This document shows, in pieces, positions 6,669 through 52,257 of a DNA stretch of 54,442 bases. Where the stretch lies: the IMG/VR virus record IMGVR_UViG_3300013005_000022, positions 1-54,442 of that record. One strand, given 5' to 3'. The number at the start of each line of letters is the position of its first letter. Position 1 is the stretch's first letter. The position numbers and the translations under genes were made by a program. This DNA is from a virus (lineage: Duplodnaviria; Heunggongvirae; Uroviricota; Caudoviricetes). The notes beneath the pieces are model-generated. The model had not been told where the DNA came from and made no database searches. It saw nothing but the letters and a program-made list of their open reading frames with translations.

Positions 6669-6971
6669 ATGGAAATACCTAATTTTGAAAATTTTATCAA
6701 CGAAGGAAAAGTTACCATCAATAAAATGAATTTCACCATACATGTATTCAACGATACTAAAGGGTTATCTGTTCAATTTATTCCGGATAGTAAAACTCTA
6801 GATAAATTTTCAAAAAATGAAATGGTTGAATCTATTAAAACAAAACTAACCTCAGCAATGCCTAAATTTGCGGATTCTCTATATTTTGCAATAGATAATT
6901 CAGCTGCTGGTTTAAGTTTCCGTGTTGATACATTTGAATTAAGTGAAATAATTACAAAAGCTATTAAATAA
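6669..6971 (+). CDS. Hypothetical protein with capsid-targeting-like N-terminus
   Basis: Starts MEIPNFENFINEG. Late-promoter-like motif upstream. Confidence 0.7.
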   Translation: MEIPNFENFINEGKVTINKMNFTIHVFNDTKGLSVQFIPDSKTLDKFSKNEMVESIKTKLTSAMPKFADSLYFAIDNSAAGLSFRVDTFELSEIITKAIK

Positions 6972-7336
6972 TGAAAACATTCAAAGAATATCTTATAGAA
7001 ACTAGCACTTTCTCTGAAGAAGAAATCAAGGCTCTTAATGAGAACCTTAAGACTGAGCTAACTGAAGAAGAAGAAGCTAAAGTAGACAAAGCTATAAAAG
7101 AATTTTGTAGTGAATACCTAGACAAAAATAAAGGAATGAAATCTTTCAATGAAGATCTAACTAATGAAGGTTTCTTGGGATCTATCTTAGGAGGTCTAAC
7201 CGGTTTTGCATTGGGTTCATCGGTTGGTAAAATCATTGCAAACGTATTGGGTATTGAAAAAGGTGTGATTTTCGATCTTCTAACTAGTAGATTAGTTGGT
7301 GCTGCATTAGGTGCTGCATTAGGAAAACGTCTATGA
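6971..7336 (+). CDS. Putative internal head protein with C-terminal glycine-zipper hydrophobic segment
   Basis: Starts MKTFKEYLIE (cf. T4 MKTYQEFIAE). C-terminal GFLGSILGGLTGFALG...LVGAALGAALG. Confidence 0.7.
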   Translation: MKTFKEYLIETSTFSEEEIKALNENLKTELTEEEEAKVDKAIKEFCSEYLDKNKGMKSFNEDLTNEGFLGSILGGLTGFALGSSVGKIIANVLGIEKGVIFDLLTSRLVGAALGAALGKRL

Positions 7337-7950
7337 TAATAGGAATTGACTTTTCAATTAATAGTACTGCCGTATCTATAAACGACGAAGGTAAATACAC
7401 ACTTTTCTCATTCGTTCCAAATTTCCAATCAGGTAAAGCGGCATTCCGTACTCATGATGCAATTGACAAAATTGTAACTATTGTTAGTTATGAAAAGACG
7501 GCAAATACCAAAGATAGTCTAGAGGATCAACGAATAAAACTTCGTAATGCCAATCGTTTATCCGACCAAATCATTGAACATATTAGACCTTACTTAGATA
7601 AAGCAGAATTTATCAATATAGAAGGTTATTCATTTGGATCTAAAGGAAATTCCTTTATCGATCTAATTACCTATAATTCATTTCTAAAAGTAAAAATTCT
7701 ACAAATCTGTGGAGAGAAGACTTGGGTTTGGCCACCTAAATCTATTAAGAAGATGTATACCGGTAATGGTAATGCATCAAAATGTATGATGGTTACCCGT
7801 TTCATGGAAGATTCTAGTCCTCTTAGAGATAAAATTTCTGAACTTGGATTTGTCCAAGAAGGCGAATTCGCAATCCCAAAACCTATCGATGATATCGTCG
7901 ATGCGGTAGCCCTATCTAGATTAAACCCTATCACCCAATCCATCATATAA
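7333..7950 (+). CDS. RuvC-like (RNase H fold) Holliday junction resolvase
   Basis: IIGIDFS, NIEGYSF, PKSIKKMYTGNGNASK and DDIVDA acidic catalytic motifs. Confidence 0.75.
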   Translation: MIIGIDFSINSTAVSINDEGKYTLFSFVPNFQSGKAAFRTHDAIDKIVTIVSYEKTANTKDSLEDQRIKLRNANRLSDQIIEHIRPYLDKAEFINIEGYSFGSKGNSFIDLITYNSFLKVKILQICGEKTWVWPPKSIKKMYTGNGNASKCMMVTRFMEDSSPLRDKISELGFVQEGEFAIPKPIDDIVDAVALSRLNPITQSII

Positions 7951-7971
7951 GTAGATAAAGACTGTATTTGC

Positions 7972-9801: not shown

Positions 9802-9810
9802 AGGAGAATT
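9784..9810 (+). repeat. 10-bp tandem repeat (GAGAATGAAG x2.7) spanning the glycosyltransferase stop
   Basis: GAGAATGAAG GAGAATGAAG GAGAATT. Confidence 0.85.
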
Positions 9811-9917
9811 ACCTAGTAACTTACTAGTACTGCCTGAAGAACTATATTATTTCCTCGATCACCTTAGATAAAGGTTATATGTAATTTTGATACGGTCAGA
9901 TTCAGTATTTTTATATT

Positions 9918-9928
9918 GAATATATAAA
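9918..9928 (+). promoter_or_regulatory. Late-promoter-like motif
   Basis: GAATATATAAA before the LamG gene. Confidence 0.5.
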
Positions 9929-9945
9929 GTGAATTAAGATATAAT

Positions 9946-10992: not shown

Positions 10993-10995
10993 AAT

Positions 10996-11142: not shown

Positions 11143-11172
11143 ATTTGGCATAAAATAGAAGATAAATATATT

Positions 11173-11799
11173 ATGAAACATATACAACATTTCGATGACT
11201 TCTTAAATGAAGTAAAAAATGAAGACCAACCTAAAAAGGAAAGACGTGTCGGACATACTGTAAAAAGAGGATATTACAAATCAGATCCACCAGATATTGG
11301 TCTTTATTCTAAAGGAGGAAGAGATGCAATCAAAGGAACTGGATATGCCAATAAAGAAAAAGCCGAATTTACCATAAAGGAGCTAGATAAACTTATGGAT
11401 AAAGGAGAAAGAGTTTGGGCTATGTCTATTGCAACCACAATGGAATCTCGTGCTAAAAAACACCAACATCAAACAGATGGAATGCGTGATGCTATGAAGA
11501 TATTCCGTGAATGGATCGATAAAAACAAGAAAAGCGAATCCATTGAAGAAGCTGAAAGTAAAACTCTATTCCATCCCGGTGAAGGAGATAAAGTTGAAGG
11601 TACCGGATATGCTGATGCGGAAGCGGCTAACAAAACAATCGCCATCATTAATAAGTTAAAGAAAACTGATCATAATCATGCTATGGCAATTGCCACTACC
11701 ATGGAAAACCGAGCTAAAACTCACAAGTACAGTACTCCTGATATGAAAGAGGCAGCTAGAATATTTAGAGAATGGATCGATAAAAACAAGAAATCATAA
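11173..11799 (+). CDS. Putative internal head protein with two tandem copies of an about 75-aa domain
   Basis: Starts MKHIQHFDDFLNE. The GTGYA...AM.IATTME.RAK.H...M..A..IFREWIDKNKK unit occurs twice. Confidence 0.75.
   Translation: MKHIQHFDDFLNEVKNEDQPKKERRVGHTVKRGYYKSDPPDIGLYSKGGRDAIKGTGYANKEKAEFTIKELDKLMDKGERVWAMSIATTMESRAKKHQHQTDGMRDAMKIFREWIDKNKKSESIEEAESKTLFHPGEGDKVEGTGYADAEAANKTIAIINKLKKTDHNHAMAIATTMENRAKTHKYSTPDMKEAARIFREWIDKNKKS
11509..11793 (+). repeat. Identical 24-bp direct repeat at the ends of two duplicated domains
   Basis: GAATGGATCGATAAAAACAAGAAA at 11509-11532 and 11770-11793. Confidence 0.9.
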
Positions 11800-16450: not shown

Positions 16451-16651
16451 ATGGCTATACTAAAATTCAAACAATTTCGTAACGTAAGAAATGAAGCTAA
16501 AGTTCTTAAGCTAAAAGAGAAAGCTTCTAAGGCGTTTAAAGAAGCATATTATGCCAAGCTCGAAAACTACGGAGCTAAAGATGCATCTGAATTGAATGAC
16601 GAACAACTTACTCAATTCCTAGAAGAATTAAAAACCTACCGAAACCAATAA
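16451..16651 (+). CDS. Small protein in UvsW.1 position, capsid-targeting-like N-terminus
   Basis: MAILKFKQF... directly after uvsW. 66 aa. Confidence 0.6.
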   Translation: MAILKFKQFRNVRNEAKVLKLKEKASKAFKEAYYAKLENYGAKDASELNDEQLTQFLEELKTYRNQ

Positions 16652-17891: not shown

Positions 17892-18149
17892 ATGAAAGCT
17901 ATTCCAGAATTCAACAAATTTAAAGAAGATGTAAATGAAGCACATGATAATGTCGAACATTACATGTTCTTTAAGAATATAGAAAATATCAAAGTAATGA
18001 TAGATGAATTGTTACAAATGAATCCTACTCAAGTAGATATGCTTTTGAACAATGGACATGATTGGGCAGCTGATCATATCACATCATCTAAAGACGATAT
18101 TCAAGAAGTTACCGACTTTCTTAAAAGTGAAATAAAACAACAATCATAA
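17892..18149 (+). CDS. Putative internal head protein
   Basis: MKAIPEFNKFKEDVNE leader. 85 aa. Confidence 0.7.
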   Translation: MKAIPEFNKFKEDVNEAHDNVEHYMFFKNIENIKVMIDELLQMNPTQVDMLLNNGHDWAADHITSSKDDIQEVTDFLKSEIKQQS

Positions 18150-18538: not shown

Positions 18539-19561
18539 ATGAAATTACTTAACTTTAATGAGTTTGTTACTCATTTAAATGAATCACAAGAACTTCTATT
18601 AGAAGCTTTCAATTCTAGTATCTTACAAAGCGTTGTAACCAAACAACGTGAAGGAGGAATTGATAAGAAATTCTTCGATGCTCTCTCTAAAATAGGAGTG
18701 GCTGCCTCTGAGGTAACTAATTTAGATATTACTACTCTTGCTCCAGCCGATGCAGCTAAATATGCTGCCGCAAACCCAAACCAAATTCTAATTTATTATT
18801 CAACAACAGAAAAACCAAATCCTTACGTATCACCAGACGGTAAATACTATTATGGAACTATTAAAGCTGATGTTCCTTTGGCAGTTGTTAAAGGTAAATT
18901 GTTCATGGGGTTGGCTTATGATCGTTGGGCTTCTAAAGGTGGAAAAGCCGAATATAAGATAGTTGCTGGTACTGATGCTGGTACATCATTAGGTCTTGGA
19001 AATAAAGATTCTCGCGGATATGGTTCTAGTGGAATTAATACACTTAAGAAAATGGCCGATGTTTCAGATGTAGTTTATGCTATTAATCCGGATACCGTTC
19101 CATCTTCTAAAGCTCTAAAAGCAGAAAGATCAGAATCTAGAGCTGGTGCAATCGCATACAAAACAGATAAAGAATTCAAAGCGGAAAATCAATCTCGATA
19201 TGAAGCTATTCTAAGAGATCGTGCTTCTAATGAAGATATTGATAAAATGGTTGGTGATGCTATTGATACTCTTACTCAACAAATTAAAGATGCAATCGCT
19301 AAAGGTGCTAAAACTTCATACGGAGATGTTCTTATTGGTTTAAATCCTAAAGGAAGAGAAGTTAAGATGTCCGATGCCGGTCACTTAATGAGTACTATCC
19401 TAAGAGATTATGGAACATATGCATCTGCTAAAAATGACGAAATTGAATCAGAAAAACGTCACGGTGAAACTGATAGATACTATCGTAATCGTTCAGCAGA
19501 AGCGGCAAAAGCTATTAAAGACGGTCTTAATAAAATTAAGAACTTAAATTACGCTTGGTAA
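18539..19561 (+). CDS. Putative internal head protein (340 aa)
   Basis: MKLLNFNEFVTHLNES...LLLE leader. Confidence 0.7.
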   Translation: MKLLNFNEFVTHLNESQELLLEAFNSSILQSVVTKQREGGIDKKFFDALSKIGVAASEVTNLDITTLAPADAAKYAAANPNQILIYYSTTEKPNPYVSPDGKYYYGTIKADVPLAVVKGKLFMGLAYDRWASKGGKAEYKIVAGTDAGTSLGLGNKDSRGYGSSGINTLKKMADVSDVVYAINPDTVPSSKALKAERSESRAGAIAYKTDKEFKAENQSRYEAILRDRASNEDIDKMVGDAIDTLTQQIKDAIAKGAKTSYGDVLIGLNPKGREVKMSDAGHLMSTILRDYGTYASAKNDEIESEKRHGETDRYYRNRSAEAAKAIKDGLNKIKNLNYAW

Positions 19562-19562: not shown

Positions 19563-20219
19563 ATGCCATCAACCTCTATTGCACAACAAAGACTTATGGG
19601 TCAGGCTTACGCTCTCAAAACAGGAGAGCTTAAGTCTTCCGACTTAGATCCTAAATATCGTAAACAAATCGAAGATCTAGCCGCATCAATGTCCGAAAAA
19701 GACCTTAAAGATTTTGCTGAAACTTCACATAAAGGTTTACCACAAAAAGTAAAAGAAAATTATAAAATGAATAGACACGTTCCTACATTTGAATCATTTA
19801 TTAATGAATCAATTGATCGATTAGAACTTGACGAAGCCATTAAAATTAAATCAGGAACTGGACCATTCTATAAATACACCAGAGATCATAAATTAATCGA
19901 AAAGATTTTTAATGAGGCATTCAACGGTCAAGAAGATAAATTGCATAGTGCAAAATTCTTTAATACTGGTGCACCATGTATCAGATTTGAATTAAAAGAT
20001 AGAAGTGACTGGATGTTAATTTACTATCCAGGTCAAACTTATTTAGAAGATCATGGTTTAGGCAGTATTTCATTATATCCATACGGTCCACAAGAAAAAC
20101 GTTACGAAATTTTCTCGGTTGGTGTAAAAGGAAACCGAAAATTTGGTGATACCAAAATGACACCAGCTGAACTAAGAGATGCTACAAACGAACTTAAAGA
20201 TTGGGCATCTAAACAATAA
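19563..20219 (+). CDS. DUF3008-like domain fused to a second module with an internal capsid-targeting-like signal
   Basis: MPSTSIAQQRLMGQA...ASMSEKDLKDFAETSHKGLP is DUF3008-like. Internal MNRHVPTFESFINES at 19767. Confidence 0.65.
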   Translation: MPSTSIAQQRLMGQAYALKTGELKSSDLDPKYRKQIEDLAASMSEKDLKDFAETSHKGLPQKVKENYKMNRHVPTFESFINESIDRLELDEAIKIKSGTGPFYKYTRDHKLIEKIFNEAFNGQEDKLHSAKFFNTGAPCIRFELKDRSDWMLIYYPGQTYLEDHGLGSISLYPYGPQEKRYEIFSVGVKGNRKFGDTKMTPAELRDATNELKDWASKQ

Positions 20220-20229
20220 AAACTATACA

Positions 20230-20538
20230 ATGACAAATAACTACATACCTACATTCGAATCATTCGTTAACGAATCCATAGACGTTAAATATTGGACGGA
20301 TTATAACGACGAAGCCGGAAGAACTTTTGCGGCTACGGAATTTGCCGAAAAATCAAAAGATTTTGACGGAACCTTCGAAGAAGCGGTAGATGATTGGAAT
20401 AATGAAGCCGATGGTCCCGAAAATCGCATCAAAGGAGCTCAAATTAAGAAGATTGAAAAGTTAGCAAAAGAATTCTTCAAAAAAACCGGATGGATCTCGA
20501 TTAATATTGTTCAGGCAATGATTATGCAAGAATCTTAA
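20230..20538 (+). CDS. Putative internal head protein (102 aa)
   Basis: MTNNYIPTFESFVNES leader. Start trimmed from the track's 20179 to remove overlap. Confidence 0.7.
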   Translation: MTNNYIPTFESFVNESIDVKYWTDYNDEAGRTFAATEFAEKSKDFDGTFEEAVDDWNNEADGPENRIKGAQIKKIEKLAKEFFKKTGWISINIVQAMIMQES

Positions 20539-20540: not shown

Positions 20541-20777
20541 ATGAAACAAGTAAAAGAAAATACTGCTGCTGCGACACCTGCTTCTGTAAATGGAATGGGT
20601 GCTCCAGCATTGCCAGGAAATCCAGGAACTCAATCAGGTTTTGTTACACAAAAGACAGGATCTGGTGATATCCCTTATTCGTTGGTTAAAGGCCAACCGA
20701 AGAAAAAGAAGAAATCTTCGTTCAAGAAATTTAATGACTTCATTAAAGGAAGCGAAGAAGTTAGAACTGCCTTTTAA
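20541..20777 (+). CDS. Small G/P-rich, basic protein (probable head-associated)
   Basis: ATPASVNGMG...GSGDIP, then KKKKKSSFKKFNDFI. Confidence 0.6.
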   Translation: MKQVKENTAAATPASVNGMGAPALPGNPGTQSGFVTQKTGSGDIPYSLVKGQPKKKKKSSFKKFNDFIKGSEEVRTAF

Positions 20778-26044: not shown

Positions 26045-26074
26045 AAGGGATTCATTTATATGGATCCCTTTTTT
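26045..26074 (+). terminator. Intrinsic terminator after nrdA
   Basis: AAGGGATTCAT...ATGGATCCCTT hairpin plus T run. Confidence 0.85.
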
Positions 26075-27091: not shown

Positions 27092-27268
27092 ATGTACAAC
27101 TTATACAGCAAATACATTCATTACAACGAATACACACAAAAATGGTACGTATTCGAGCGTTCAGAAGCTACTCATTATCTAAATGATTCTGCTAAGCTTA
27201 AAACATTAAAAGAATATAAATCAATCGAGGATCTATTAAAGGACCATAAAAAAGAAACAAATGATTAA
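27092..27268 (+). CDS. Small hypothetical protein (58 aa), not in ORF track
   Basis: MYNLYSKYIHYNEYTQKWYVF... Its stop overlaps the next start (ATGATTAA). Confidence 0.6.
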   Translation: MYNLYSKYIHYNEYTQKWYVFERSEATHYLNDSAKLKTLKEYKSIEDLLKDHKKETND

Positions 27269-35504: not shown

Positions 35505-35518
35505 GATATATAATAAAA
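35505..35518 (+). promoter_or_regulatory. Late-promoter-like motif
   Basis: GATATATAATAAAA in the intergenic gap. Confidence 0.5.
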
Positions 35519-35530
35519 TCAAGAAGTGAC

Positions 35531-37909: not shown

Positions 37910-38266
37910 ATGGCAATATACGTAAAACCAAAAGAACTATACGAAGAAATTTGTATTTCACTAGAGCAAAAGAAATTGACGCCAAAGGCTGAAAAGATGC
38001 TCATATTAATAGCTGAAAGAGCTAATCAAAAGCTAAGATATGAAAATCCAATGGACCGAGAGGATTGCATTGCTTTTGCTCTTTTGGATTTGTTCAAATA
38101 CTGGGATCGATTCAAACCAGAGAAAACCACAAATGCATTTGCATTTTATACACAAATTGCAAAAAATGCATATGCTAAAGGATGGAATAAACTACATCCT
38201 GGTAAATACAAAGGAACATTATCGCTTGATGGCGGTATGGATCGTGAAGGTATTTACTCAATATAA
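37910..38266 (+). CDS. gp55: Late-transcription sigma factor (T4 gp55-like), unusually short
   Basis: RY....DREDCI..A..D..KYW.RF.PEK..NAFAFYTQIAKNAY matches gp55 region 2. Confidence 0.8.
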   Translation: MAIYVKPKELYEEICISLEQKKLTPKAEKMLILIAERANQKLRYENPMDREDCIAFALLDLFKYWDRFKPEKTTNAFAFYTQIAKNAYAKGWNKLHPGKYKGTLSLDGGMDREGIYSI

Positions 38267-38275: not shown

Positions 38276-38677
38276 ATGTACGCAATTAAAACATATTCTG
38301 AATTCATAAACGAAGGTAAGTCTTCAAACTTCAATAGAACTTATACTATGGGTTCTACCTGGTGGGCTTTATGGAAAAAAGAAAACAAAGAAGATTTTGA
38401 TATAAAGCAAGATGCTTTTACCAAAACTTTTGAGGTTTATACGAAAGATAAAGAACCCAAATTAAAATTTGTTTTTGATTACGGACGAAATGTAGTTTTT
38501 ACCAACGATTCTCCTAAAATGTTTGAATTGGGAAGAATTAAACCTGCTGCTAAAGCAAGTGCAGAAGAGACCGATGCAGAAACTGGTAAAAAAGAAGTAA
38601 TTCCTGGAGCTGAAACCCCTAAAGAGGCAGAAGCCGAAGGGGAATTAACTACTGATAAAACCGAAGAAGAAGAATAA
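38276..38677 (+). CDS. Putative internal head protein with acidic tail
   Basis: MYAIKTYSEFINE leader. Confidence 0.7.
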   Translation: MYAIKTYSEFINEGKSSNFNRTYTMGSTWWALWKKENKEDFDIKQDAFTKTFEVYTKDKEPKLKFVFDYGRNVVFTNDSPKMFELGRIKPAAKASAEETDAETGKKEVIPGAETPKEAEAEGELTTDKTEEEE

Positions 38678-38699: not shown

Positions 38700-39575
38700 A
38701 TGAATCATTTACCAACATACTCGGATTTTATTCTAGGTCCTCCAATTGCTTTTGACGGAAACGGATTAAGAGTTGGACAATCAATAGTTGCTGCCGATGG
38801 TTATTCCGGTATTATAGTTTCAAGAGAAATGGTTAACGGACAAATTATGTTCAGAGATCATTTAGGTGTACATCATTTAGTTGAGGCTTGTGATGTTGTT
38901 ATCGATGAAGCTATTAATGAAGACCTTCAATGGTGGGAAGTAACCAAAGGGATACTTGCTGCTGATGCAATTAAAAGCGGAATGGCTATTGCCGGTGGAG
39001 GACTTGCAGTTGCTGCATTAATGTTCTCTAATTGGTTTCATAATATCACTTCAAAAATGGCAACTGCTAGAAAAGATGCTAAATTAAAAGCTGCCGCTGA
39101 AGCAATTGCAGTTAAATTTAATGAAGATACTGAATTAAATGGAATGATGAAAAAACTTCAACAATTCCCTTATATGAAACCTCTTATGGCTTCGAAAAGA
39201 GAAGCTGCTAAGATTGCTGCCAATAACAAAGAAAGATCAAAAGTCTTAAGAGAAATTGCTAAATATGTAAAATCTAAATTAACTCCAGAAGAAACTGAAT
39301 TCTTTGTTGAAGTTAATAAAATACTTAAATCTCAACCACTAGCTACTAATGATGGAGAGAAAGTAGAAGAAGATTTGCAACAAATGGCTGATGCTGTTTT
39401 AGATCCATCTAATTCTAATGCAGAATCTTCTATTAATAAAGATCCAAATAGAACTGTTGGTACCGGAACTTATACTTCCACAACCTCAGATCCAAATCCA
39501 ACAACTAAAGGTTTATTCAAAACTACTGATTCTGCATCCGGTGGTTGGAGTCCTTTTTTGACTACTTCTAATTAA
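38700..39575 (+). CDS. Putative internal head protein with hydrophobic Gly/Ala segment
   Basis: MNHLPTYSDFI leader. AINE site followed by GILAADAIKSGMAIAGGGLAVAALMF. Confidence 0.65.
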   Translation: MNHLPTYSDFILGPPIAFDGNGLRVGQSIVAADGYSGIIVSREMVNGQIMFRDHLGVHHLVEACDVVIDEAINEDLQWWEVTKGILAADAIKSGMAIAGGGLAVAALMFSNWFHNITSKMATARKDAKLKAAAEAIAVKFNEDTELNGMMKKLQQFPYMKPLMASKREAAKIAANNKERSKVLREIAKYVKSKLTPEETEFFVEVNKILKSQPLATNDGEKVEEDLQQMADAVLDPSNSNAESSINKDPNRTVGTGTYTSTTSDPNPTTKGLFKTTDSASGGWSPFLTTSN

Positions 39576-39625: not shown

Positions 39626-39928
39626 ATGAAAAACTTAATGTCTTTTGACGAATATGTCGTTAACGAAGCTGCTAAGAATGATGCTGCTGGTTTCAACCCA
39701 GAAAAAGAAACTACTAGCGACGAATTCAACCAAGAATTAACTCCTGGTAAAAAATACAATGTTAAAAAAGGAGAAGAAACTTCTCTTTGCATTTATCAAG
39801 GAAACACTGATGGTGTTTATGTATTCAATCCAGAAGCTAAAGAAGAAGGTGTAGTTACTGCTCCATGTGAATACACTGAAGCTGAACTTGATGCTGCTAT
39901 GAAAGCTGGTGAAATCACTGCTGCTTAA
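39626..39928 (+). CDS. Putative internal head protein (one copy of L.PG..Y...YQG..G..IFN domain)
   Basis: MKNLMSFDEYVVNE leader. Confidence 0.7.
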   Translation: MKNLMSFDEYVVNEAAKNDAAGFNPEKETTSDEFNQELTPGKKYNVKKGEETSLCIYQGNTDGVYVFNPEAKEEGVVTAPCEYTEAELDAAMKAGEITAA

Positions 39929-39949: not shown

Positions 39950-40522
39950 ATGAAGAATCTTAAAACATTTGCTGAATTCGTATTAGAATCTCAGGAATTT
40001 GATCCTGCTAAAACGACTGATATTGATGTTCTTTTACCTGCTATTAAATCTGCTTCAGAGCTAATGCCTGGTAAAGAATACGTTATCAATCTTGACGGTA
40101 AGACTCATGCCAATATGATGTATCAAGGTGTATCTGATGGTAATTACATCTTCAACTCTGAAGATATGAAAACCACATTAAACCTTAATACTGAACAAAT
40201 CAGTGGTGCCGTTTCAGTTGGAGGAGTTCAACAAGTAAACGAATCTAAATCTTATAAAGGAAGAGAAGTTTTCCCTAATTGGATTAATCCTAGTAGAGAT
40301 TTTGGTGCTCCAGTTAGTAAGACAAAAGATCTTAAACCTGGTGCTGAATATATCCTTTGGGAACCTGGAATGGACGTTTGGCAAGCTGAATGGATCTATC
40401 AAGGTTATACCGGTGGAAAACATATATTCAATGATTCTAATAAAGAAGCAGATCCTATGGTATTCACTCAATCTGAATTAGAAGAATACATTACAAGTGG
40501 TGACGTTATAAAGCAAAACTAA
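39950..40522 (+). CDS. Putative internal head protein (two copies of the same domain)
   Basis: MKNLKTFAEFVLE leader. LMPGKEY...YQGVSDGNYIFN and LKPGAEY...YQGYTGGKHIFN. Confidence 0.7.
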   Translation: MKNLKTFAEFVLESQEFDPAKTTDIDVLLPAIKSASELMPGKEYVINLDGKTHANMMYQGVSDGNYIFNSEDMKTTLNLNTEQISGAVSVGGVQQVNESKSYKGREVFPNWINPSRDFGAPVSKTKDLKPGAEYILWEPGMDVWQAEWIYQGYTGGKHIFNDSNKEADPMVFTQSELEEYITSGDVIKQN

Positions 40523-41776: not shown

Positions 41777-41795
41777 GAATAAATAATAAAATACT
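41777..41795 (+). promoter_or_regulatory. Late-promoter-like motif before portal (identical 19-mer at 38672-38690)
   Basis: GAATAAATAATAAAATACT occurs at both sites. Confidence 0.55.
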
Positions 41796-41808: not shown

Positions 41809-43425
41809 ATGGCAGGATTCGTAAATAGAGAGGAGACTTACGCAGGTAAACCATCCGCATCTTCAAGAAATGTCGTTTCTAAAGCTCTTAAATCGTTATC
41901 ATCTTTTGGGATGATGTACGATGATATGGTGCTTAGAAACTCAAAAGCCATAGGTATCAATGAAGACCGATTCGGTTGGAGACTAGATCCAAGAAATGCA
42001 GCCGGTGGTGAATATGACGATTATGCTCTATTTGCTAACCTTTCAATGACAGATATTAATCTGCGTAAAAGTATTTCTATTTTTGACAAATCTTATATTA
42101 AAAAGAGAGAAGATCTTAGAAAATTCTCTATCCAAGATGAAATTGAAGAGATTCTCGATACCTTATGTGACGAATGTATCGTCTATGACGAAAAAAATTA
42201 CTTCTGTACACCATTAACTTTTGATGATCAGACACTAGAACCAGAAACTTTAGAGGCTGTTAAGTACGCTTTAGATACAAACTTTAAAAGAGTTTACCAG
42301 TACTTTGGCTTCAATAATGATATTTCTGCTTGGTCTTATTTTCGTAAATGGTTAATTGATGGATATCTCGCATTCGAGATTATCTATAATAAAGAACAAA
42401 CAAGAATTATCGGTTTCAAAGAACTTGATCCAGTATCTTTAGAACCAGGTCTTGATAAAGAAGGTAAGAAAATTTGGAAACAATTTAAAGCTCAACCTGG
42501 TAAAGAAAGAGTTATTTATGACTCACAGCTAATCTACCTTTCATATGCACATGCCAATACCGTAAGTCGTGTTTCTTATGTAGAACGTCTTATTCGTGCA
42601 TTCAACTTGCTTCGTATTATGGAGCACTCAAGAGTTATTTGGGCTACTGTTAATGCCTCATTCAAAACTAAATTCGTTATTCCTGTCGGTGGTAAATCTA
42701 AAACCAGAGCTCGTCAAAGCTTAGGTGTTCTGATGCAAAATTACCGAGAGAATATTGATTTTGATACTGAATCCGGAGAACTTAAAGTTAATGGTAAACC
42801 AATGATGCCTTTCAACAAAGAGTATTGGTTACCTTCTGGGGAAGCTGGTGAACCTACTATCGAGAATATTGGTAATGATGGTCCAGACTTATCAGATACA
42901 GATGCTCTTAAATATTTCCGTGAGAAACTAATTAAAGTATCTAAAATTCCACTTTCTCGTTTTGATATGGAATCTCCTCCATCATGGGAAATGAATGCTG
43001 AAGGTATGACAAGAGATGAAATTAAATTTGGTCGTTTTGTTAATCGTATGCGTTCAGTTTATCAAGAAATCTTGGTAAAACCTTTATGGATTCAAATGTG
43101 TTTAGACTTTCCAGAACTTAAAGATGATGATGCTTTTAAGGCACAAATTGGAATTAAGTTCAATAAATATAACATCTTTGAAGAGATGAAAGAGATTGAA
43201 ATCCTTCAAAAACGATTAGATTTTGTTACTTCAATGAAAGATGGTCTTGTAGAAACCGATGCTAATATGAACGAAATTAAATACTTTGCTTCGGAATTCT
43301 TAATTCAACGTTTCCTTGGTTTATCATCAGATGATATCCGAACCAACAAGAAAATGAAAGAATTAGAAGACGAAGAAAAACTAGCAGCCGCTAAGAAAGC
43401 CGCTGAAGCAACTGGTGGATTCTAA
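41809..43425 (+). CDS. gp20: Portal protein (T4 gp20-like)
   Basis: FR.W.IDG.L.F, ELDP..L, LR.ME...I....A......IPVG, YWLP, DALKYF.EKL.....IP.SR, RDE.KF..F. Confidence 0.95.
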   Translation: MAGFVNREETYAGKPSASSRNVVSKALKSLSSFGMMYDDMVLRNSKAIGINEDRFGWRLDPRNAAGGEYDDYALFANLSMTDINLRKSISIFDKSYIKKREDLRKFSIQDEIEEILDTLCDECIVYDEKNYFCTPLTFDDQTLEPETLEAVKYALDTNFKRVYQYFGFNNDISAWSYFRKWLIDGYLAFEIIYNKEQTRIIGFKELDPVSLEPGLDKEGKKIWKQFKAQPGKERVIYDSQLIYLSYAHANTVSRVSYVERLIRAFNLLRIMEHSRVIWATVNASFKTKFVIPVGGKSKTRARQSLGVLMQNYRENIDFDTESGELKVNGKPMMPFNKEYWLPSGEAGEPTIENIGNDGPDLSDTDALKYFREKLIKVSKIPLSRFDMESPPSWEMNAEGMTRDEIKFGRFVNRMRSVYQEILVKPLWIQMCLDFPELKDDDAFKAQIGIKFNKYNIFEEMKEIEILQKRLDFVTSMKDGLVETDANMNEIKYFASEFLIQRFLGLSSDDIRTNKKMKELEDEEKLAAAKKAAEATGGF

Positions 43426-43466: not shown

Positions 43467-45371
43467 ATGAGTCAAAAATATTTGCTCGTACTGGAAAGAT
43501 CCTCTTCTGAATTAGACATCAAAACAGAAGGTGATAATTACGTTCTAGAAGGAATCTTTACAGAGATCGGCGTTAAAAACAAAAACAATCGTATTTACGA
43601 TGAAAAAGAAGTTCTTCCTCACATAGATGAACTTTTACAAAAGGTAAAAGGGAGTAAACTTTTAGGAGAATTAGATCATCCAAAATCTTTTGAAGTTTCT
43701 TTAAAAAATGCATCACATGTTATTGAAGCATTAGATTACGACAAAAACACCAAAAAAGTAATGGGTAGAATTCGTCTACTTAATACTAGTGCTGGTAAAG
43801 AAGCAAAAGCATTAGTTGATGCTGGTATTCCTTTACATATTTCTAGTCGTGCTGCTGGTGTAGTTGAGAATAATGGTCACGTTAAAATCAAAAAAATGTT
43901 TACTTACGATTTAGTTGCAGATCCTGGATTTGCTAATGCTGAATTATCAAGAGTAAATGAAGCATTTGGATTTGAGATGGATGATACATTAGGACTTTAT
44001 GAAATACCTTATGATTCTAAGTTAGCTGAGTCTTTCGAAGATCATGATAAAATTGATGAAAACAAACAAACTCAAAACATAAACAAATCTTCAAAAATGA
44101 ATACAACGGAGAACATTTCAGTTGAAGATTTTAACGAATATACAAAAATCGTTAAAAACGAAATTGAAAACCTTAAAAAACAAATCGCTGAGAGTAACAC
44201 TGATGCTGTAACAGAGAGTAATGAATCTTTGGTTAAGTATACCGAAACTATCGCAAAAAGAGTAAATCAAATCCAAGAAAACCTAGGTTCTTTAAAAGAG
44301 AATTTCGATCACTTGGTATCACACAATGATTACATCGTAGAAAACCTTGAAAAGGTTAAAGATTACGCTGAAATGGTTGGTGAGAAATCAAATCAAGGAA
44401 TTAACTATTCAGAAAAACTTGCTGAATCAGTTGACCACTTAATTGAGTACACTAAAATGGTTGCTGAAAAAGCAGATCATGGAATCTCTTATACTGAGAG
44501 AATCGCTGAATCTCTTGATTCTTCAATCGAATATCAAAACCACGTTACCAAAGAAGTTAATGAGCGTTTTGCTTACCAAACTTACATCAACGAACAAGTT
44601 GATAACATCATTTCCCATACAGATTATATCGTTGAAGGTTGTGATTCTATTATCAAGTACACTGAGTACTTAAAAGAGAACCAATCAAGTTTAACTGGTT
44701 ATATGGACTATGTAGTTAAAGGAATTAACGAAGGAAAAGTTATTACTAACGATCCTACAGACGATAATAAATCAGAAAACGGAAACGAAGATGATTCTAA
44801 AGTAAATGAAGGTGCTGATGCTACTGCTTCTACTGCTACAACTGCTGACGAATTTGAAAAAGAAATTAACTCTAAAGTTGATGCTATTTTAGAATCCGCT
44901 AAAGCTCAAAAAGATGAAGTTAAAAAATCTAAAATGCATTTCTTTAATTTCTTAGCAGAATCAAAAAGAAACGAATTTGAAGCGTTAAATCCTGAAATGC
45001 AAGAAAAAATCGTTGGTCTTTTCGAGTCTACTAAATGGTACGGTTCAACTGATGCTAATAACATTTGGGAATCTGCTTTCGCTAAACCAGTTGCTAAAAA
45101 TGATTGGTTAGCTAATATGCCAAATCGTTATGCTGAAGCTTGGAATTCATTAAACGAATCACAAAAGAATGCTATTAAAGCTCAAGCTTCGGTAAGAGTT
45201 CTTGATACACAATATCAAATCGATTCTTTCTGGTCATCTAGAGATTTAAGAGTTACTAAAGTAGAATCTACTACTCCTGTTGCTCCAATCAACGAATCAT
45301 CTAAGTACGAAACTCCAACTGAATACATGGATACTGTAGCTGCTGAATTAAAAAGAAGATTCAAAAGATAA
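43467..45371 (+). CDS. gp21: Prohead protease (gp21-like) fused to scaffold/core protein (gp22-like)
   Basis: LEGIF...N.NNR.Y, GELDHP, ISSRAAG, YDLVADP protease motifs, then about 470 aa of acidic coiled coil. Confidence 0.88.
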   Translation: MSQKYLLVLERSSSELDIKTEGDNYVLEGIFTEIGVKNKNNRIYDEKEVLPHIDELLQKVKGSKLLGELDHPKSFEVSLKNASHVIEALDYDKNTKKVMGRIRLLNTSAGKEAKALVDAGIPLHISSRAAGVVENNGHVKIKKMFTYDLVADPGFANAELSRVNEAFGFEMDDTLGLYEIPYDSKLAESFEDHDKIDENKQTQNINKSSKMNTTENISVEDFNEYTKIVKNEIENLKKQIAESNTDAVTESNESLVKYTETIAKRVNQIQENLGSLKENFDHLVSHNDYIVENLEKVKDYAEMVGEKSNQGINYSEKLAESVDHLIEYTKMVAEKADHGISYTERIAESLDSSIEYQNHVTKEVNERFAYQTYINEQVDNIISHTDYIVEGCDSIIKYTEYLKENQSSLTGYMDYVVKGINEGKVITNDPTDDNKSENGNEDDSKVNEGADATASTATTADEFEKEINSKVDAILESAKAQKDEVKKSKMHFFNFLAESKRNEFEALNPEMQEKIVGLFESTKWYGSTDANNIWESAFAKPVAKNDWLANMPNRYAEAWNSLNESQKNAIKAQASVRVLDTQYQIDSFWSSRDLRVTKVESTTPVAPINESSKYETPTEYMDTVAAELKRRFKR

Positions 45372-47184: not shown

Positions 47185-47205
47185 AAATACGATCATATAA
47201 TTGAA

Positions 47206-47781
47206 ATGATATATCCTAGTCAAGCAATACAAATCAGACCTGATCTAAAGGATTATAGAGATCTTTGTTCTAAATTCGGTTATCAACCGACTAAAGAGGA
47301 ATATGAAGAAACTCTTAAATTCCTTTTGCTATTCCATACAGGAATCGGTCATACATGTGAATCCCATGAAGTAGATTTTTTCTATCATGAAATGGAGATG
47401 CATTTATTAGAAAACAATCTTAATCAAGATCTTTTTGAATCCGCAGTTTTAAATGAAGAGCCTCATGCATTTGCAGATCCTGCTTCGGAAAAAGATACTG
47501 CTTTAGGTCTTATAACTGCTGCCGGAGTTGGTGCTGCTGGTCTTGGTGCTGCCGCCGCTGTTGGTGTTGGAATGTTTATTTCCTACCTTATGAAAAAAGG
47601 TAAAGTGAAATCTGCAGTTAAAACTGAATTAGCCGGTATGATGAAGAAATTAGAGCCTTACCAATTAATATACAAAAAGAGAGAAGAACTTTCCAAATTA
47701 AAAGGAGAAACTTTCGATGGAATTGGTAAGTTACCTGGTGTTTCTGAAGCACCGCCAATGGAAGAAAAGCCAGAAAAATAA
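47206..47781 (+). CDS. Hypothetical protein with glycine-zipper hydrophobic segment
   Basis: LGLITAAGVGAAGLGAAAAVGVGMFISYLM after a VLNE site. Confidence 0.65.
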   Translation: MIYPSQAIQIRPDLKDYRDLCSKFGYQPTKEEYEETLKFLLLFHTGIGHTCESHEVDFFYHEMEMHLLENNLNQDLFESAVLNEEPHAFADPASEKDTALGLITAAGVGAAGLGAAAAVGVGMFISYLMKKGKVKSAVKTELAGMMKKLEPYQLIYKKREELSKLKGETFDGIGKLPGVSEAPPMEEKPEK

Positions 47782-47799
47782 TTCAAAAAGAGCTTATAA

Positions 47800-50277
47800 A
47801 TGATGACTAAAAATCTAGAAAATCTTATTAGAGAAGAGTATCTAAGTGCTCTGTATGAACAACAAATAATAGAGAATTTATCAAATACTGAAATCGATAC
47901 ATTATTCAATGAATTTATTTCTGAAGTATCTGAACAATTCGATTTTGAAATTCCTGAAGAATCAACTATCGAGGAGATTTTAGAATCTTTCGAAGATTGG
48001 GATCTTACGGAAAATGAATCATACACAAAACTAATAGAGGCTATTGGTAAACGTCCGAGTGCTACAAAAAGAAAGCCGACAAAACCAAAAAGACCTATGG
48101 CGAATAAGCCAAAACCTAATCAGAATAAACCTAAGCCAAAACCTAAGGCTAAACCTGAACCTAAGGCTAAACCTGAACCTAAAAAAATGGATGTTAAACC
48201 TAAAGGGGAAAAGCCAGAAGGTAAAAAACCTGAAGGTCCTACTAAGGCTGAAAAGGAAGAAAAGATATCAGCCGAGAAGCAAAAGATTAAAGATCAAATT
48301 GATTCTCTTAATACTCAAAAGGATTCTCTTCAAGGAAAAGATGATAACAAATCTCGTGAATTAGAAACGAAGATTAAATCTCTAGATGCAGAAAAAACTA
48401 AATTAACTGCAGTACAAAAGAAAGAATCCGGAGATGAAAAGGCTGGTGATTATGCCAAATTATCCTCTCTCAAAAAAGCAGAAGCTGATGCATATGCTGC
48501 ATGGACTAAAGTTAAGAACGAAACATCGGAATCTGTAACTGAAGCAGAAGATGAAGAAGTTGAAGCTAGTACCAAAGAAGCTAAAATTAAATTCTTAAAT
48601 GCTCGTATTGCAACTCTTAAACAACAAGAGGCAATGGCCGATTCCCCTGAAGGAAAAACTAAACAGAAAGAAGCCGTTGCTAATGCAGAAAAAGAACTTG
48701 TCGCTTTAGGTGCTGAATCTACTGACGGTGAATCTACCGAAGAGAAAGAGAAATCTCTTAAAGATGTTAAGAAGGAAAATGCAGAACTTAATAAACAACT
48801 TAATACTGCAAAAACCGAAAAACTTAAAGCTGATAATAAAGTAAAAGAGATCAAAGATCAAATTGCTAATGAACAAGATCCGGCTAAGAAAACCGAACTT
48901 AATAAACAACTTAATGCTGCTTCAGAAGAGGCATCGATAAAAGGTAATGAAGTATCTGAACTTCAACCAAAGGTTGATGATTCTGATGAAGAATTAGAAG
49001 CCGCAAAAGAAAAAAGCGGTGGATCTGATAAAGATAAGAAAGAGAAGATATCTGCTGCCGAAAAGAAGATTGAAGATATTAATTCTAAACTAGAATCAGA
49101 AGAAGATCCGGAAAAAAGAGATATTCTTAAACAAAAACGAAAAGAAGCAAAGGCAGAACTTGCTAAACTCACTGGTAAAGAAGCAGAAGAAGATACTGAT
49201 TCTGAATCTGATAGAATGCAAGATGAATTAGTCAATAAGAAAAAAATTGAGGCAATTCAAACTAAAGTTGATGAACTTAACGATCAATTAGCTGCAGAAA
49301 AAGATCCAGCTAAAAGAAAGTTAATTAAAGATAAAATCAAAAAAGAGAAAGCCGAAATATCTAAACTTAAAGGCGAAGAACCCACTGAAGAAGAACCTAG
49401 TGATGATGAAAAGGCTGCTGATACTGAAGCGGAAAATGCAGATAAAATTGCAAAACTTGAAGCTGAACTTGAAAAACTAGAATCCGATGCCGATTCTAAA
49501 GTGTCCGCTCATGAAGAAGCAGTACAGGCTCAAATGAAAAAAACCAACGATATAGTTGGTTGGAATTTAATGCTTAAGAGACTTGCTACTCGTATGAGAA
49601 TGGAAAATATGGTTGAGTATAACAACGCTAAAATTCAACTTGCTTCTCCTGATCTAAAAGACAAATTAGAAGAAAAAGATAAAGAACTTGAAAAACTAGT
49701 TTCTCAAGCAGATGAAGATCTTAAAAAGGCAGAAGATGAAAATAATAAAGAGCACGCTAAAGATCCAGAAGTTAAAGATGCTCAAGCAGTTGCTGATACC
49801 GAAGAAGCTGAAGGAGATACTCAAAAACCGAGCGGATCTTCTAAATCTAGTGAAGATGACGTTGAAGCTAAATTTGCTGCACAGAAAAAAGCTAGAGAAG
49901 ATGCCGAAAAGGCTGCTCAAACTAAAGGAAGAAATGCCGATATTGAAGCTAAAGGAAATACTCCACAAGAAAAGGCCAAAGATTACTCTATTAAAAAATT
50001 AGAAACTAAAATATCTGCTATTTCAACTGCATGGCAAAAAATGCAAGATGATGCTAGTAAAGCTAAAGGTAAAGATAAAGAAAAATTAGATATGAAAGCT
50101 TCGGCAATCGAGAAAAATCTTAATCTTGCTAAGGAAGAGTTAACCAAATTAAAAAGTGGATCTTCTACACCAAATGAATCATTTGAAGATTTTGAATCTG
50201 GTGTTTGGGCAATCGACTTTATCCTAGAAAGAGTTGAAAACCAAATGAATGAATATCAATTCTTAATTAGCGAATAA
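47800..50277 (+). CDS. Very K/E-rich coiled-coil protein with Pro-Lys linker and internal repeats
   Basis: 825 aa. KPKPKPKAKPEPKAKPEP and three E.DP.K helical-hairpin repeats. Confidence 0.7.
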   Translation: MMTKNLENLIREEYLSALYEQQIIENLSNTEIDTLFNEFISEVSEQFDFEIPEESTIEEILESFEDWDLTENESYTKLIEAIGKRPSATKRKPTKPKRPMANKPKPNQNKPKPKPKAKPEPKAKPEPKKMDVKPKGEKPEGKKPEGPTKAEKEEKISAEKQKIKDQIDSLNTQKDSLQGKDDNKSRELETKIKSLDAEKTKLTAVQKKESGDEKAGDYAKLSSLKKAEADAYAAWTKVKNETSESVTEAEDEEVEASTKEAKIKFLNARIATLKQQEAMADSPEGKTKQKEAVANAEKELVALGAESTDGESTEEKEKSLKDVKKENAELNKQLNTAKTEKLKADNKVKEIKDQIANEQDPAKKTELNKQLNAASEEASIKGNEVSELQPKVDDSDEELEAAKEKSGGSDKDKKEKISAAEKKIEDINSKLESEEDPEKRDILKQKRKEAKAELAKLTGKEAEEDTDSESDRMQDELVNKKKIEAIQTKVDELNDQLAAEKDPAKRKLIKDKIKKEKAEISKLKGEEPTEEEPSDDEKAADTEAENADKIAKLEAELEKLESDADSKVSAHEEAVQAQMKKTNDIVGWNLMLKRLATRMRMENMVEYNNAKIQLASPDLKDKLEEKDKELEKLVSQADEDLKKAEDENNKEHAKDPEVKDAQAVADTEEAEGDTQKPSGSSKSSEDDVEAKFAAQKKAREDAEKAAQTKGRNADIEAKGNTPQEKAKDYSIKKLETKISAISTAWQKMQDDASKAKGKDKEKLDMKASAIEKNLNLAKEELTKLKSGSSTPNESFEDFESGVWAIDFILERVENQMNEYQFLISE
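48142..48180 (+). repeat. 18-bp in-frame tandem repeat (PKAKPE x2)
   Basis: CCTAAGGCTAAACCTGAA twice, plus CCT. Confidence 0.9.
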
Positions 50278-50765
50278 TGGAAATCATTAGACAAAATCTA
50301 GGAAAACGTCCAACCAAGTTCGGTATAGTTCTAGATCGACTTAAACCTAGATATCAAAGAATATTAAAGAAGAATCCTATCATTCGTAATTACTCAACGG
50401 ATGATAGGATCCTTAAATGTATCTTCAAAATAGAAGATAGATTAATACAAGTATCTCATCTCAAAAGAGTTTTTATTGAACCTAAAAGCAGAGAAATATC
50501 CACTTTTAAAATCATCAGAGAATCATATCATCAATTCGATTGGAATTGTACTTTTTGCAATAAACCAATCAAATCTCGAATAGATAATTATGAACCAGGA
50601 AACTTTACTTGCACGAAATGCGAGAATACATATATTAAAGGAACTCGAAAAATTCCTAGACGAATAATCGAGGAATCTTTAAGATTCACAGAACATGTGA
50701 AAACTTTAATGAAGACTGATCAAAAGAAAATTATAAAATATATCAAGAAAAATGATGAATCTTAA
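50277..50765 (+). CDS. Basic zinc-finger hypothetical protein
   Basis: CTFC and CTKC pairs. Confidence 0.65.
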   Translation: MEIIRQNLGKRPTKFGIVLDRLKPRYQRILKKNPIIRNYSTDDRILKCIFKIEDRLIQVSHLKRVFIEPKSREISTFKIIRESYHQFDWNCTFCNKPIKSRIDNYEPGNFTCTKCENTYIKGTRKIPRRIIEESLRFTEHVKTLMKTDQKKIIKYIKKNDES

Positions 50766-52257
50766 GTACTTCAGTGATTTTGTTAATGAAGCAAAAACTA
50801 CTGACGCAAAAACTGTTAAAAATCCGAGAGTTAAACTAGTACTACTAACGAATGCTAGTAAAGAATCTCATACCGTTCCTTCGTTCGAAGCAGAATGTAA
50901 AAAAATGGGTGTTGAATTCATCGTTATTGATATCAGTACAGCAATGATTGCTGATGGTAAAGACGGTAACTTCTTCATCAGTGATAAAGAAAATCCAAAA
51001 GGCCTTAAGATCAATGCAGATAATACTGCAGTTTTAACTCGTCGTGGAGTTGTTAGAAATACTTATACAAAATCACTAGTTGAGAAGTTAGAAGATAATA
51101 ACTTCTTTGTTGTAAATACACTTGAAGCTATTATGGCTTGTGAGAACAAATATGTTACTACAAAAATCCTTAAAGAAGCTGGACTTCCAGTTCCTAAAAC
51201 TGCTATTGTTGATGGAGAAGACTCTATTGAAAGAGCGGTTAAAGATGTTGGTGGTAAATTCCCAGTAGTTTGTAAAATCCTTTCTGGATCTCAAGGAATT
51301 GGAGTTTCTATTGTAGATTCTCTTGCCTCTCTTAAATCTGTTTTACAGACCATATGGAAAGTTGATCCCTCTGTTGAAATCTTGATTCAAGAGAAGATCG
51401 AATCTGAATACGATTTAAGAATACACGTTTTGACGAGAAAATTCAACTCGCCAACACCAGAAGACACCGATTCGGTACTTCTTGGTTACATGAGAAGAAA
51501 TCGTGTTAAAAAAGACTTCCGTACTAATTACTCTTTAGGCGGAACCGTTGAAAAAACTAAAGTAACACCAGAACAAGAGAAAATAGCTATCGAATCAGCT
51601 AAGGCTGTTGGTTGTAATTGGTGTGGAGTTGATATTATCGTAGATAAGAAAACTGGTGCTAATTACGTTCTAGAAGTTAATGCTTCTCCAGGAACTACTG
51701 GTTTGAAAAAAGCTACTGGTGTTAACGTTGTTAAAGATATCGTTCAATTCTTAATGGATAAAACCAACTGGATTCGTTCTAGAAAACGTGTTGGTTTCCG
51801 TGAAGTAATTCAGATCCCTAATCTTGGTGATGTGGTTGCTAAATTTGATACTGGTAATGGATCTCTTTCTTGTACACTTACATACGATAAAATAGATGTT
51901 AATGAAAAAGAAAAACTAGTTAAATGGACTTTAGGTAAAAGAGATTTTGAATCTAAATTTGTCGGATTCACCGAAACCGAAGTTGGTGATACTGTAGAGA
52001 AACGTCCAGTTATTGAAATGGATATTCAATTTGCTGGTAAAGTATACAAGAAAGTTCCGGTTGCATTAGATGATCGTTCTACCAAAAGTACTAAATTCCT
52101 TGTGAATCGTAAATTCATGGAGAGAATTGGTTGTTCAGTAGATCCAATGAGAACTTTCGTGGTAACTTCATTTCCTGAAGATTATCATGGTGGAGAAGCT
52201 AAAAAGGATCCACATGCAGGAATTATCTTTGAATGGGATAAAAAGAAAACTAAATAA
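50752..52257 (+). CDS. rimK: RimK-family ATP-grasp ligase fused to a retropepsin-like (RimB / PF05618-type) protease
   Basis: NKY.T...L..AGLPVPKT, K...GSQGIGV, IQE.I...YD.R, FRTNYSLGG, GVDI, LEVNASPG; then GFRE..., AKFDTGN, RPVI, DRS..., L..R.F. Confidence 0.85.
   Translation: MMNLKYFSDFVNEAKTTDAKTVKNPRVKLVLLTNASKESHTVPSFEAECKKMGVEFIVIDISTAMIADGKDGNFFISDKENPKGLKINADNTAVLTRRGVVRNTYTKSLVEKLEDNNFFVVNTLEAIMACENKYVTTKILKEAGLPVPKTAIVDGEDSIERAVKDVGGKFPVVCKILSGSQGIGVSIVDSLASLKSVLQTIWKVDPSVEILIQEKIESEYDLRIHVLTRKFNSPTPEDTDSVLLGYMRRNRVKKDFRTNYSLGGTVEKTKVTPEQEKIAIESAKAVGCNWCGVDIIVDKKTGANYVLEVNASPGTTGLKKATGVNVVKDIVQFLMDKTNWIRSRKRVGFREVIQIPNLGDVVAKFDTGNGSLSCTLTYDKIDVNEKEKLVKWTLGKRDFESKFVGFTETEVGDTVEKRPVIEMDIQFAGKVYKKVPVALDDRSTKSTKFLVNRKFMERIGCSVDPMRTFVVTSFPEDYHGGEAKKDPHAGIIFEWDKKKTK

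Follow-up and report, generated by a model that had tools for sequence, protein, structure and literature searches.

A leader resembling the T4 capsid targeting sequence is shared by about 28 proteins of an IMG/VR phage and probably marks them as head cargo

The IMG/VR record IMGVR_UViG_3300013005_000022 is a single-contig virus genome of 160,448 bp (33% G+C) with nearly all genes on the + strand, and the window analyzed here is its first 54,442 nucleotides (54 kb). In the window, 13 genes and one weak case (16451) encode proteins that share a short leader peptide with the consensus M-K-x-[IL]-x-x-[FY]-x-[DE]-[FY]-[ILV]-N-E. Genes are named by their start coordinates and lengths are in amino acids (aa). 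In the list below, a slash marks the end of the leader, bit scores refer to a leader hidden Markov model (HMM), and L-type motifs are promoter-like elements, both described further on.

6669-6971, + strand: leader gene, 100 aa, MEIPNFENFINE/G; leader HMM 15.6 bits; L-type motif at 6643
6971-7336, + strand: leader gene, 121 aa, MKTFKEYLIE/T, with T4 spacing (compare T4 IPI, MKTFKEF)
11173-11799, + strand: leader gene, 208 aa, MKHIQHFDDFLNE/V; leader HMM 15.7 bits
16451-16651, + strand: weak candidate, 66 aa, MAILKFKQFRNVRNE/A; 1.9 bits; L-type motif at 16423
17892-18149, + strand: leader gene, 85 aa, MKAIPEFNKFKEDVNE/A, non-canonical spacing
18539-19561, + strand: leader gene, 340 aa, MKLLNFNEFVTHLNE/S
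19563-20219, + strand: DUF3008 (residues 4-63) and an in-frame internal leader from Met69 (nucleotide 19767), MNRHVPTFESFINE/S; 18.7 bits
20230-20538, + strand: leader gene, about 102 aa from its probable true start, MTNNYIPTFESFVNE/S; leader HMM 21.2 bits
35531-36283, + strand: leader gene, 250 aa, MSIKSYDEFVNE/H; L-type motif at 35506
38276-38677, + strand: leader gene, 133 aa, MYAIKTYSEFINE/G; leader HMM 16.9 bits
38700-39575, + strand: leader gene, 291 aa, MNHLPTYSDFILG, aromatic core; L-type motif at 38674
39626-39928, + strand: leader gene, 100 aa, MKNLMSFDEYVVNE/A, paralogue of 39950
39950-40522, + strand: leader gene, 190 aa, MKNLKTFAEFVLE/S; leader HMM 10.7 bits
50752-52257, + strand: leader gene, 501 aa, MMNLKYFSDFVNE/A; RimK-like ATP-grasp ligase with a Zn_protease-like (RimB-type) domain

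A preliminary description of the window had cited 14 sites for this motif. All were checked, and 11 are plain N-termini. Site 20230 is likely to be the real start of the open reading frame (ORF) 20179-20538, 11 nucleotides (nt) past the preceding stop, and 19767 is the internal Met69 of ORF 19563-20219, downstream of the DUF3008 domain. The evidence at 16451 is divided, since an L-type motif stands directly upstream but the leader scores only 1.9 bits against the HMM. The cargo set had been put at about 15 proteins; that it is large holds, but the figure was too low by about half, as some 28 carriers are found among the 232 ORFs of the record (about 12%, or roughly 1 gene in 8), 13-14 of them in the window. 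The 14 further carriers outside it begin at 74070, 74487, 74705, 75181, 79523, 123815, 125780, 126364, 126649, 127004, 127951, 128853, 130416 and 139599.

The core of the leader, [FY]xx[FY][ILVM], begins at residues 3-8 in 26 of the 232 ORFs, compared with 3.1 +/- 1.7 (maximum 8) for composition-matched random N-termini (binomial p = 5e-15). Of the occurrences of the full motif, 24 fall within residues 1-13, and scanning about 47,700 internal positions yields 17 more. An HMM built from 166 distinct leaders of other IMG/VR contigs, independent of this genome, matched 17 of its proteins at i-E < 0.05, in every case at the N-terminus or at one of the two internal Met residues. Of 27 leaders, 21 are followed by S, A or G. 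After trimming by 18 residues, the 28 carriers show no mutual BLAST similarity at E <= 1e-3, except for 39626 with 39950. Synonymous codons vary at the conserved residues (TTT/TTC 11:8, AAT/AAC 9:8), and the leader peptide is retained in LR756500, a related phage, despite a G+C content of 24%; the constraint therefore acts on the protein. The leader is a portable protein tag, not a gene family.

Three other kinds of signal were considered for the leader and rejected: a Sec, Tat or lipoprotein signal, because the leader has no hydrophobic stretch that could serve as a core; a nucleotide-level signal, because the codons vary; and a paralogous family, because the mature parts are unrelated. The preliminary description had also seen the motif on none of the recognised replication enzymes. 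This stood: the leader is absent from SSB, primase, helicases, both DNA polymerase B halves, RNR and the UvsX-like, Mre11/Rad50-like and dUTPase proteins.

The window also encodes a head module of the T4 type and a late sigma factor:

37910-38266, + strand: gp55-like late sigma factor
from 40538: gp4-like head closure protein
from 41017: gp2-like DNA end protector
41809-43425, + strand: portal protein (gp20-like); L-type motif at 41779 upstream
43467-45371, + strand: gp21-like prohead protease (residues about 1-167) fused to a scaffold, 634 aa
45480-47099, + strand: Gp23-type major capsid protein, starting MYLINE/S

The protease domain matches phrog_207 (E = 4.6e-43) and T4 gp21 (BLASTP E = 8e-11), and its LGELDHP and ISSRAAG align with the His and Ser motifs of T4 gp21, LGELNHP and VSSRGLG. 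A search of 50,741 residues for the tetrapeptide in which most leaders end, h-N-E-[SAG] (h, hydrophobic), gives 43 matches, of which 20 are leader ends. Five others lie in the 634-aa protease-scaffold, against 0.5 expected, and one in the capsid protein, at residues 4-7. LR756500 conserves the site RVNE/A that closes the protease domain, as well as LINE/[SA] and HELYE/N of the capsid protein, the last of which aligns with the T4 gp23 maturation site. We predict that the leader end is a protease cleavage motif that also serves in the scaffold and in the capsid propeptide.

In the scaffold half of the fusion, a 14-residue unit, Y-[TS]-E-x-[ILV]-[AV]-E, is repeated about 12 times in tandem, and the same period is found in LR756500. 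The scaffold is the most enriched protein of the genome for [FY]xxx[ILVM]xE (8 versus 1.3 expected, p = 7e-5), and the units YTEYLKEN and YQTYINEQ resemble the leader core. This likeness suggests, as a hypothesis, that the leader joins the core by imitating the scaffold repeat. Complex prediction for the leader of 38276 (its residues 1-40) and the entire protease-scaffold scored 0.00, with a pLDDT of 32 for the partner; this is evidence neither way. Just after the capsid gene, 47800-50277 encodes an 825-aa protein with an extreme content of K, E, A and D (AT skew 0.37); five overlapping [FY]xxxhxE units lie in its first 53 residues. This protein may reside inside the head and possess a long propeptide.

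The leader closely resembles the capsid targeting sequence (CTS) of the T4 internal proteins (IPs). T4 IPII and IPIII start MKTYQEFIAE/A and IPI starts MKTFKEFTS..., so the 10-residue CTS that the preliminary description ascribed to all three applies to IPII and IPIII, while the leader of IPI is longer. The first 10 residues of IPIII are enough for encapsidation (Mullaney and Black 1996, summarised in PMC9026906). Residues 4 and 7 are the main determinants of targeting in IPIII and processing requires residues 8 and 10, while Asp at position 10 blocks cleavage but leaves targeting intact (PMC9026906). Y4, F7, I8 and E10 of IPIII correspond to the four conserved leader positions here, [FY], [FY], [ILV] and E. 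In both systems a 10-19-residue N-terminal leader stands on otherwise unrelated proteins, reading M-K-T-[FY]-x-E-F-h-x-E and then a small residue, with two aromatic residues three apart for targeting, and a hydrophobic residue and a Glu two further on for processing (PMC9026906, PMC3012670). A gp21-family protease, a Gp23 capsid protein and a gp55 late sigma factor are likewise common to both. The differences are that T4 has three IPs whereas this 160-kb record has about 28 carriers (about ninefold), that the canonical leader here is 3 residues longer (MKxIxx before the first aromatic) and ends in N-E rather than A-E, that carriers include enzymes of 190-507 aa, that the protease is fused to the scaffold and that the host is of Bacteroidota type; this phage is uncultured.

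Applied to T4, the same core test returns IPII, IPIII and gp61.1. The last (18966-19130) is a 54-aa hypothetical protein among early genes that starts MKTFKEFIKE and is CTS-like by sequence; to our knowledge, it has not been called an internal protein. The T4 core proteins gp22, gp67, gp68 and gp21 have short N-terminal propeptides ending in h-x-E (gp22 starts MLKEQLIAE/A).

Three promoter-like classes, designated L, M and E, stand out in the record. The L class, ATA[AT]ATAATAAAAT, lies 14-38 nt upstream of starts and resembles the T4 late motif TATAAATA. Sites in the window include:

35506-35519, + strand: L-type motif, example
6643, 16423, 17866, 34533, 38674, 41779, 43441 and 47178: starts of other L-type motifs

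The strict L motif has 15 matches, 7 before leader genes and the rest before the portal, protease-scaffold, tail tube and lysin-like genes and a few unknowns. When each gene was assigned its nearest upstream element, using a slightly relaxed L motif and operon logic, this element was L for 27 of 28 leader genes as against 81 of 197 other genes (Fisher p = 8e-9). The element directly preceding the gene is L for 11 leader genes, and M or E for none. The earlier remark that many carriers follow late-promoter-like motifs holds as well. We term L a putative late class because of its likeness to TATAAATA and the genes downstream of it. The M class (TCATATAAT, 14 sites) often follows a terminator, and the E class is a Bacteroidota-type TAnnTTTG cassette (13 sites); examples of the two classes in the window are at 26074, 47193 and 53100 and at 52865 and 54246.

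Shine-Dalgarno sequences are absent before start codons, and one promoter class contains the Bacteroidota -7 box TAnnTTTG. Together, these features point to a host of Bacteroidota type. The record may be incomplete, as an estimated completeness of about 60% is given for related IMG/VR contigs some 170 kb long. A megablast search of the window from 35 to 52.5 kb against GenBank phages found no near-identical relative. The closest capsid protein is that of LR756500, a 462-kb uncultured phage (55% identity), followed by those of the Lak megaphages, Tenacibaculum phages pT24 and PTm1/PTm5, and Sphingomonas phage PAU.

In LR756500, at least 21 proteins start MKYIxxYxEF[IL][NL]E. An exact degenerate DNA pattern for the leader matched more than 116 IMG/VR stretches, which is a lower bound. 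Among the matches listed, 251 of 1,660 ORFs bear the leader, and about 135 of these are neighbours that had not been used to find the locus. Each of the five leader-bearing contigs sampled (166-640 kb) encodes a Gp23 capsid protein, together with an ORF of 606-808 aa that contains a protease with 48-77% identity to that of the window, the same protease-scaffold fusion. Two orthologues retain the leader: that of 123815 in LR267941 (32% identity), and a RimK-like gene in the cultured Pelagibacter phage Mosig, with the start MQVQPFKNYLEE/A. The core test showed no excess on Mosig and no coherent motif on PTm1. A variable-gap DNA pattern run on PTm1, pT24, PAU, Lak-B5 and T4 returned only noise; this pattern is not frame-aware and, owing to its gap setting, missed T4's own IPs. 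Among the papers covered, a full-text literature search found no description of an expanded CTS-like leader in Bacteroidota phages or megaphages.

Most carriers gave no family in PHROGs and Pfam searches. In the window, only 50752 has a recognisable fold, with PF08443 (RimK ATP-grasp) at 117 bits (E = 8.7e-34), over the curated cut-off; its C-terminal Zn_protease-like stretch scores under its own. The YerA41_066 protein of Yersinia phage YerA41 (gene 066), a homologue of 50752 without this leader, is annotated as a structural protein; the YerA41 record also flags RNR as present in particles, so this label is a weak hint. ESM Atlas feature searches reached at best 0.87 (18539) and 0.85 (35531), both under the meaningful level. 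Outside the window, 139599 is Acb1-like (PF23474, 31.8 bits versus a cut-off of 27) with both HxT motifs present, HCTL at residue 63 and HMTI at residue 138, and is predicted to be an Acb1-like 2H phosphoesterase. The product of 79523 is a GT2 glycosyltransferase, that of 125780 is cytidylyltransferase-like (NMNAT-like, motif GRFQPFHNGH), and that of 123815 (437 aa) belongs to no family. Homologues of 123815 and 125780, separate genes here (123815-126364), are fused in a single 639-aa protein in Microcystis phage Mel-JY01 and therefore probably act together. The enzyme carriers span 190-507 aa; the remaining carriers are small, often acidic and without a recognised domain. The mature part of 35531 is strongly acidic, that of 11173 is an internal duplication, and 6971 has a hydrophobic, Gly/Ala-rich C-terminus.

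A Pfam search of 132 leader proteins of relatives returned Tad3, Acb1, ART-PolyVal, NUDIX, cREC_REC, a Zeta-toxin-like kinase, RimK, cytidylyltransferase, AAA_5 and LRR proteins. The tagged set includes families known to disarm CBASS and Thoeris. In T4, internal proteins are ejected into the host with the DNA (PMC12373910, PMC9026906), and the three IPs all block GmrSD restriction enzymes (PMC12373910). The mix of cargo seen here fits, as circumstantial evidence, with proteins delivered to act early in the next host, as Alt and the IPs of T4 do.

Other known systems share parts of this design. The T4 Alt protein, a packaged ADP-ribosyltransferase (ART) with the leader MELITELFDE, and the 'polyvalent proteins', injected multi-enzyme proteins reportedly described by Iyer et al. 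in 2017, are likewise head-loaded enzymes with a short N-terminal propeptide that is cut by the prohead protease, and they reach the host together with the DNA. In relatives of the phage studied here, the leader stands on ART-PolyVal domains; this phage's own carriers differ in being separate enzymes with an IP-type leader, and no ART was found among them. In the phiKZ-like phages the cleavage motif is S/A/G-x-E. These phages, including SPN3US, also package many head proteins and have a gp21-related protease that cuts after Glu, but, by the account given for SPN3US, their propeptides are long (often >100 residues) and dissimilar, and have no shared address tag readable from sequence, in contrast to the short shared tag here (PMC5694885, PMC7411985, PMC10052503). 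Sphingomonas phage PAU belongs to the same capsid-protein clade (33% identity) and has a related leader, MKT[LI]xQLYE...KLNE/A, common to scaffold and internal proteins. Its head-core proteins are gp149, gp150, the gp152 scaffold, gp153 and gp154 ('internal capsid protein'), of which gp152 and gp154 share one leader; in the region of PAU that was read, its leader, unlike the one described here, lacks the double aromatic and is found on about five clustered head genes only. Encapsulin cargo-loading peptides offer an analogy only: a short terminal peptide brings unrelated enzymes into an HK97-fold shell, but the peptide is usually C-terminal and neither protease removal nor DNA nor ejection is involved.

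Taken together, we consider it likely that the shared N-terminus is a targeting and cleavage leader of the T4 kind in a distant lineage of the T4 superfamily. This agrees with the reading proposed in the preliminary description, and several lines of evidence strengthen it: the leader is N-terminal on unrelated proteins and conserves the residues that were mapped in T4 for targeting and processing; a gp21-family protease with its His and Ser motifs is present, and the same cleavage tetrapeptide recurs in its scaffold; carriers are tied to the promoter-like motif of head and tail genes; and the leader is kept in relatives that share the head module. Since its conserved positions match the T4 head-loading tag, some 28 distinct proteins, among them several enzymes, are probably packed into the head together with the DNA. 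By analogy with T4, we infer that these proteins are physically encapsidated, lose the leader, remain in the head and are finally ejected.

In the mechanism that we propose, leader genes would be transcribed together with head and tail genes from the T4-late-like promoter, through the gp55-like sigma factor. The leader, an amphipathic stretch of 12-16 residues, would then dock each protein on the assembling prohead core by means of its two aromatic residues three apart. This core would be built from the scaffold half of the fusion, whose 14-residue Y-x-E-x-h-x-E repeat the leader resembles. Once activated in the prohead, the gp21-like protease would cut after the Glu of h-N-E, mostly before S, A or G, freeing the mature protein inside the shell, while the scaffold and the capsid propeptide would be cut at sites of the same kind. 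Once released, these proteins would remain beside the packaged genome and probably pass with it into the next host.

A further step, which we regard as tentative and give less than even weight, is that the leader is a detached copy of the scaffold repeat. Tagged proteins would then co-polymerise with the core, and the phage would pre-load a fast-evolving kit of enzymes for the next host, acting there before expression of any of the phage's genes. In this genome the proposed kit would include the Acb1-like protein, for degrading cyclic nucleotides, the NMNAT-like cytidylyltransferase, the RimK-like ligase and the glycosyltransferase, and in relatives Tad3, ADP-ribosyltransferase, NUDIX and LRR proteins. 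With the tag, such injected sets could then be read from sequence in hundreds of large uncultured phages. Proteins injected with DNA act before phage genes are read, which makes them prime candidates for first-strike counter-defence, and outside T4 they are hardly predictable from sequence. If the targeting reading is true, the tag marks as head cargo about 12% of the genes in this record and hundreds in related uncultured phages. It would allow a sequence-only listing of injected proteins across a large uncultured phage group, supply many small proteins to screen for anti-defence activity, and possibly provide a packaging tag for engineering Bacteroidota phages. Copying a scaffold repeat would also be a route by which cargo loading could evolve.

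Several observations weigh against the T4-type reading or its extension. About 11 carriers have an altered spacing from core to Glu and low leader HMM scores. At 38700, one of the sites cited in the preliminary description, the aromatic core is present but the closing Glu is absent; on the T4 reading, this protein may be targeted to the head but not cleaved. The leader HMM gives only 0.6 bits on the scaffold, which is not significant, and the likeness between the two is a loose heptad pattern; for this reason repeat imitation is put forward as a hypothesis. PTm1 has the same protease-scaffold fusion and lacks the leader, so the head module alone does not imply the tag. The GT2 protein (79523) and the cytidylyltransferase are unexpected as cargo, since a capsid would not contain their substrates; they would need to work either once ejected or on what the prohead contains. 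Finally, the 'late' label of the L class is a putative one, drawn from motif likeness and the genes downstream.

The main rival, which we judge unlikely, accepts that the leader targets the prohead core but holds that most carriers are transient components of the core or inner body instead of effectors for the next host. Such proteins would help to build or fill the head, and would then be degraded or left as DNA-organising filler. Many carriers are indeed small (66-135 aa), acidic and without recognisable domains, the T4 core proteins carry propeptides of a similar ending, the PAU scaffold bears the same leader as an internal protein, and the leader resembles the scaffold repeat. Set against this, several carriers, namely the RimK-like, Acb1-like (two HxT) and cytidylyltransferase proteins, are enzymes whose catalytic motifs are intact and for which a structural role is implausible; in relatives, the leader stands on known anti-defence families and on an ADP-ribosyltransferase like the one that T4 injects; and the mature parts are highly diverse, as would be expected of cargo in an arms race.

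Less probable still is that the leader is a tag unconnected with the capsid, such as a docking site for another phage machine or chaperone, a degron, or an activation propeptide cut in the cytoplasm. It is a generic short, amphipathic, acidic helix, the location of its carriers in the head is drawn from the T4 analogy, and the GT2 protein and cytidylyltransferase would work more naturally in the cytoplasm. A tag of this kind would not account for the residue-for-residue match to the T4 CTS at functionally mapped positions, nor for a leader end that matches sites enriched in the protease-scaffold and present in the capsid protein. The co-occurrence of the leader with the head module in relatives and the structural-gene promoter class upstream of leader genes also argue against it, and the missing hydrophobic stretch speaks against the export signals among such tags. 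That the motif is an artefact, through chance in an A+T-rich genome in which F, Y, N, K, I and E are frequent at 33% G+C, through a nucleotide signal at start codons, or through paralogy among carriers of which some are tandem neighbours (74070-75438, 126364-127951), is refuted by the composition-matched controls (26 observed versus 3.1 +/- 1.7), the varying codons, the same peptide in a relative of 24% G+C and the unrelated mature parts, and we give it negligible weight.

Some further observations concern proteins in or near the leader set. Hydrophobic Gly/Ala-rich segments of the type GLITAAGVGAAGLGAAAAVG are common to 47206-47781, 6971-7336 and 38700-39575, and their products could be membrane-active ejection proteins; in 38700 the segment lies within the leader-bearing product. 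In relatives, DUF3008 heads other, unrelated C-terminal parts, and in one IMG/VR relative it is joined to the VNGMG motif. DUF3008 may itself be a portable N-terminal module, or gene 19563-20219 may give two products. A 78-aa ORF at 20541-20777 repeats segment 39-86 of the capsid protein (52% identity over 48 residues, E = 3e-14). The copy spans the presumed maturation site and the VNGMG...PGNPGTQ stretch, and is followed by a Lys run and the leader-like SFKKFNDFIKG; its product could mimic the N-arm of the capsid protein. Outside the window, 125320 has a layout similar to that of this ORF. Among the replication genes, the family B DNA polymerase is split into 21802-23202 and 27261-28469, about 4 kb apart, with RNR subunits and other genes between.

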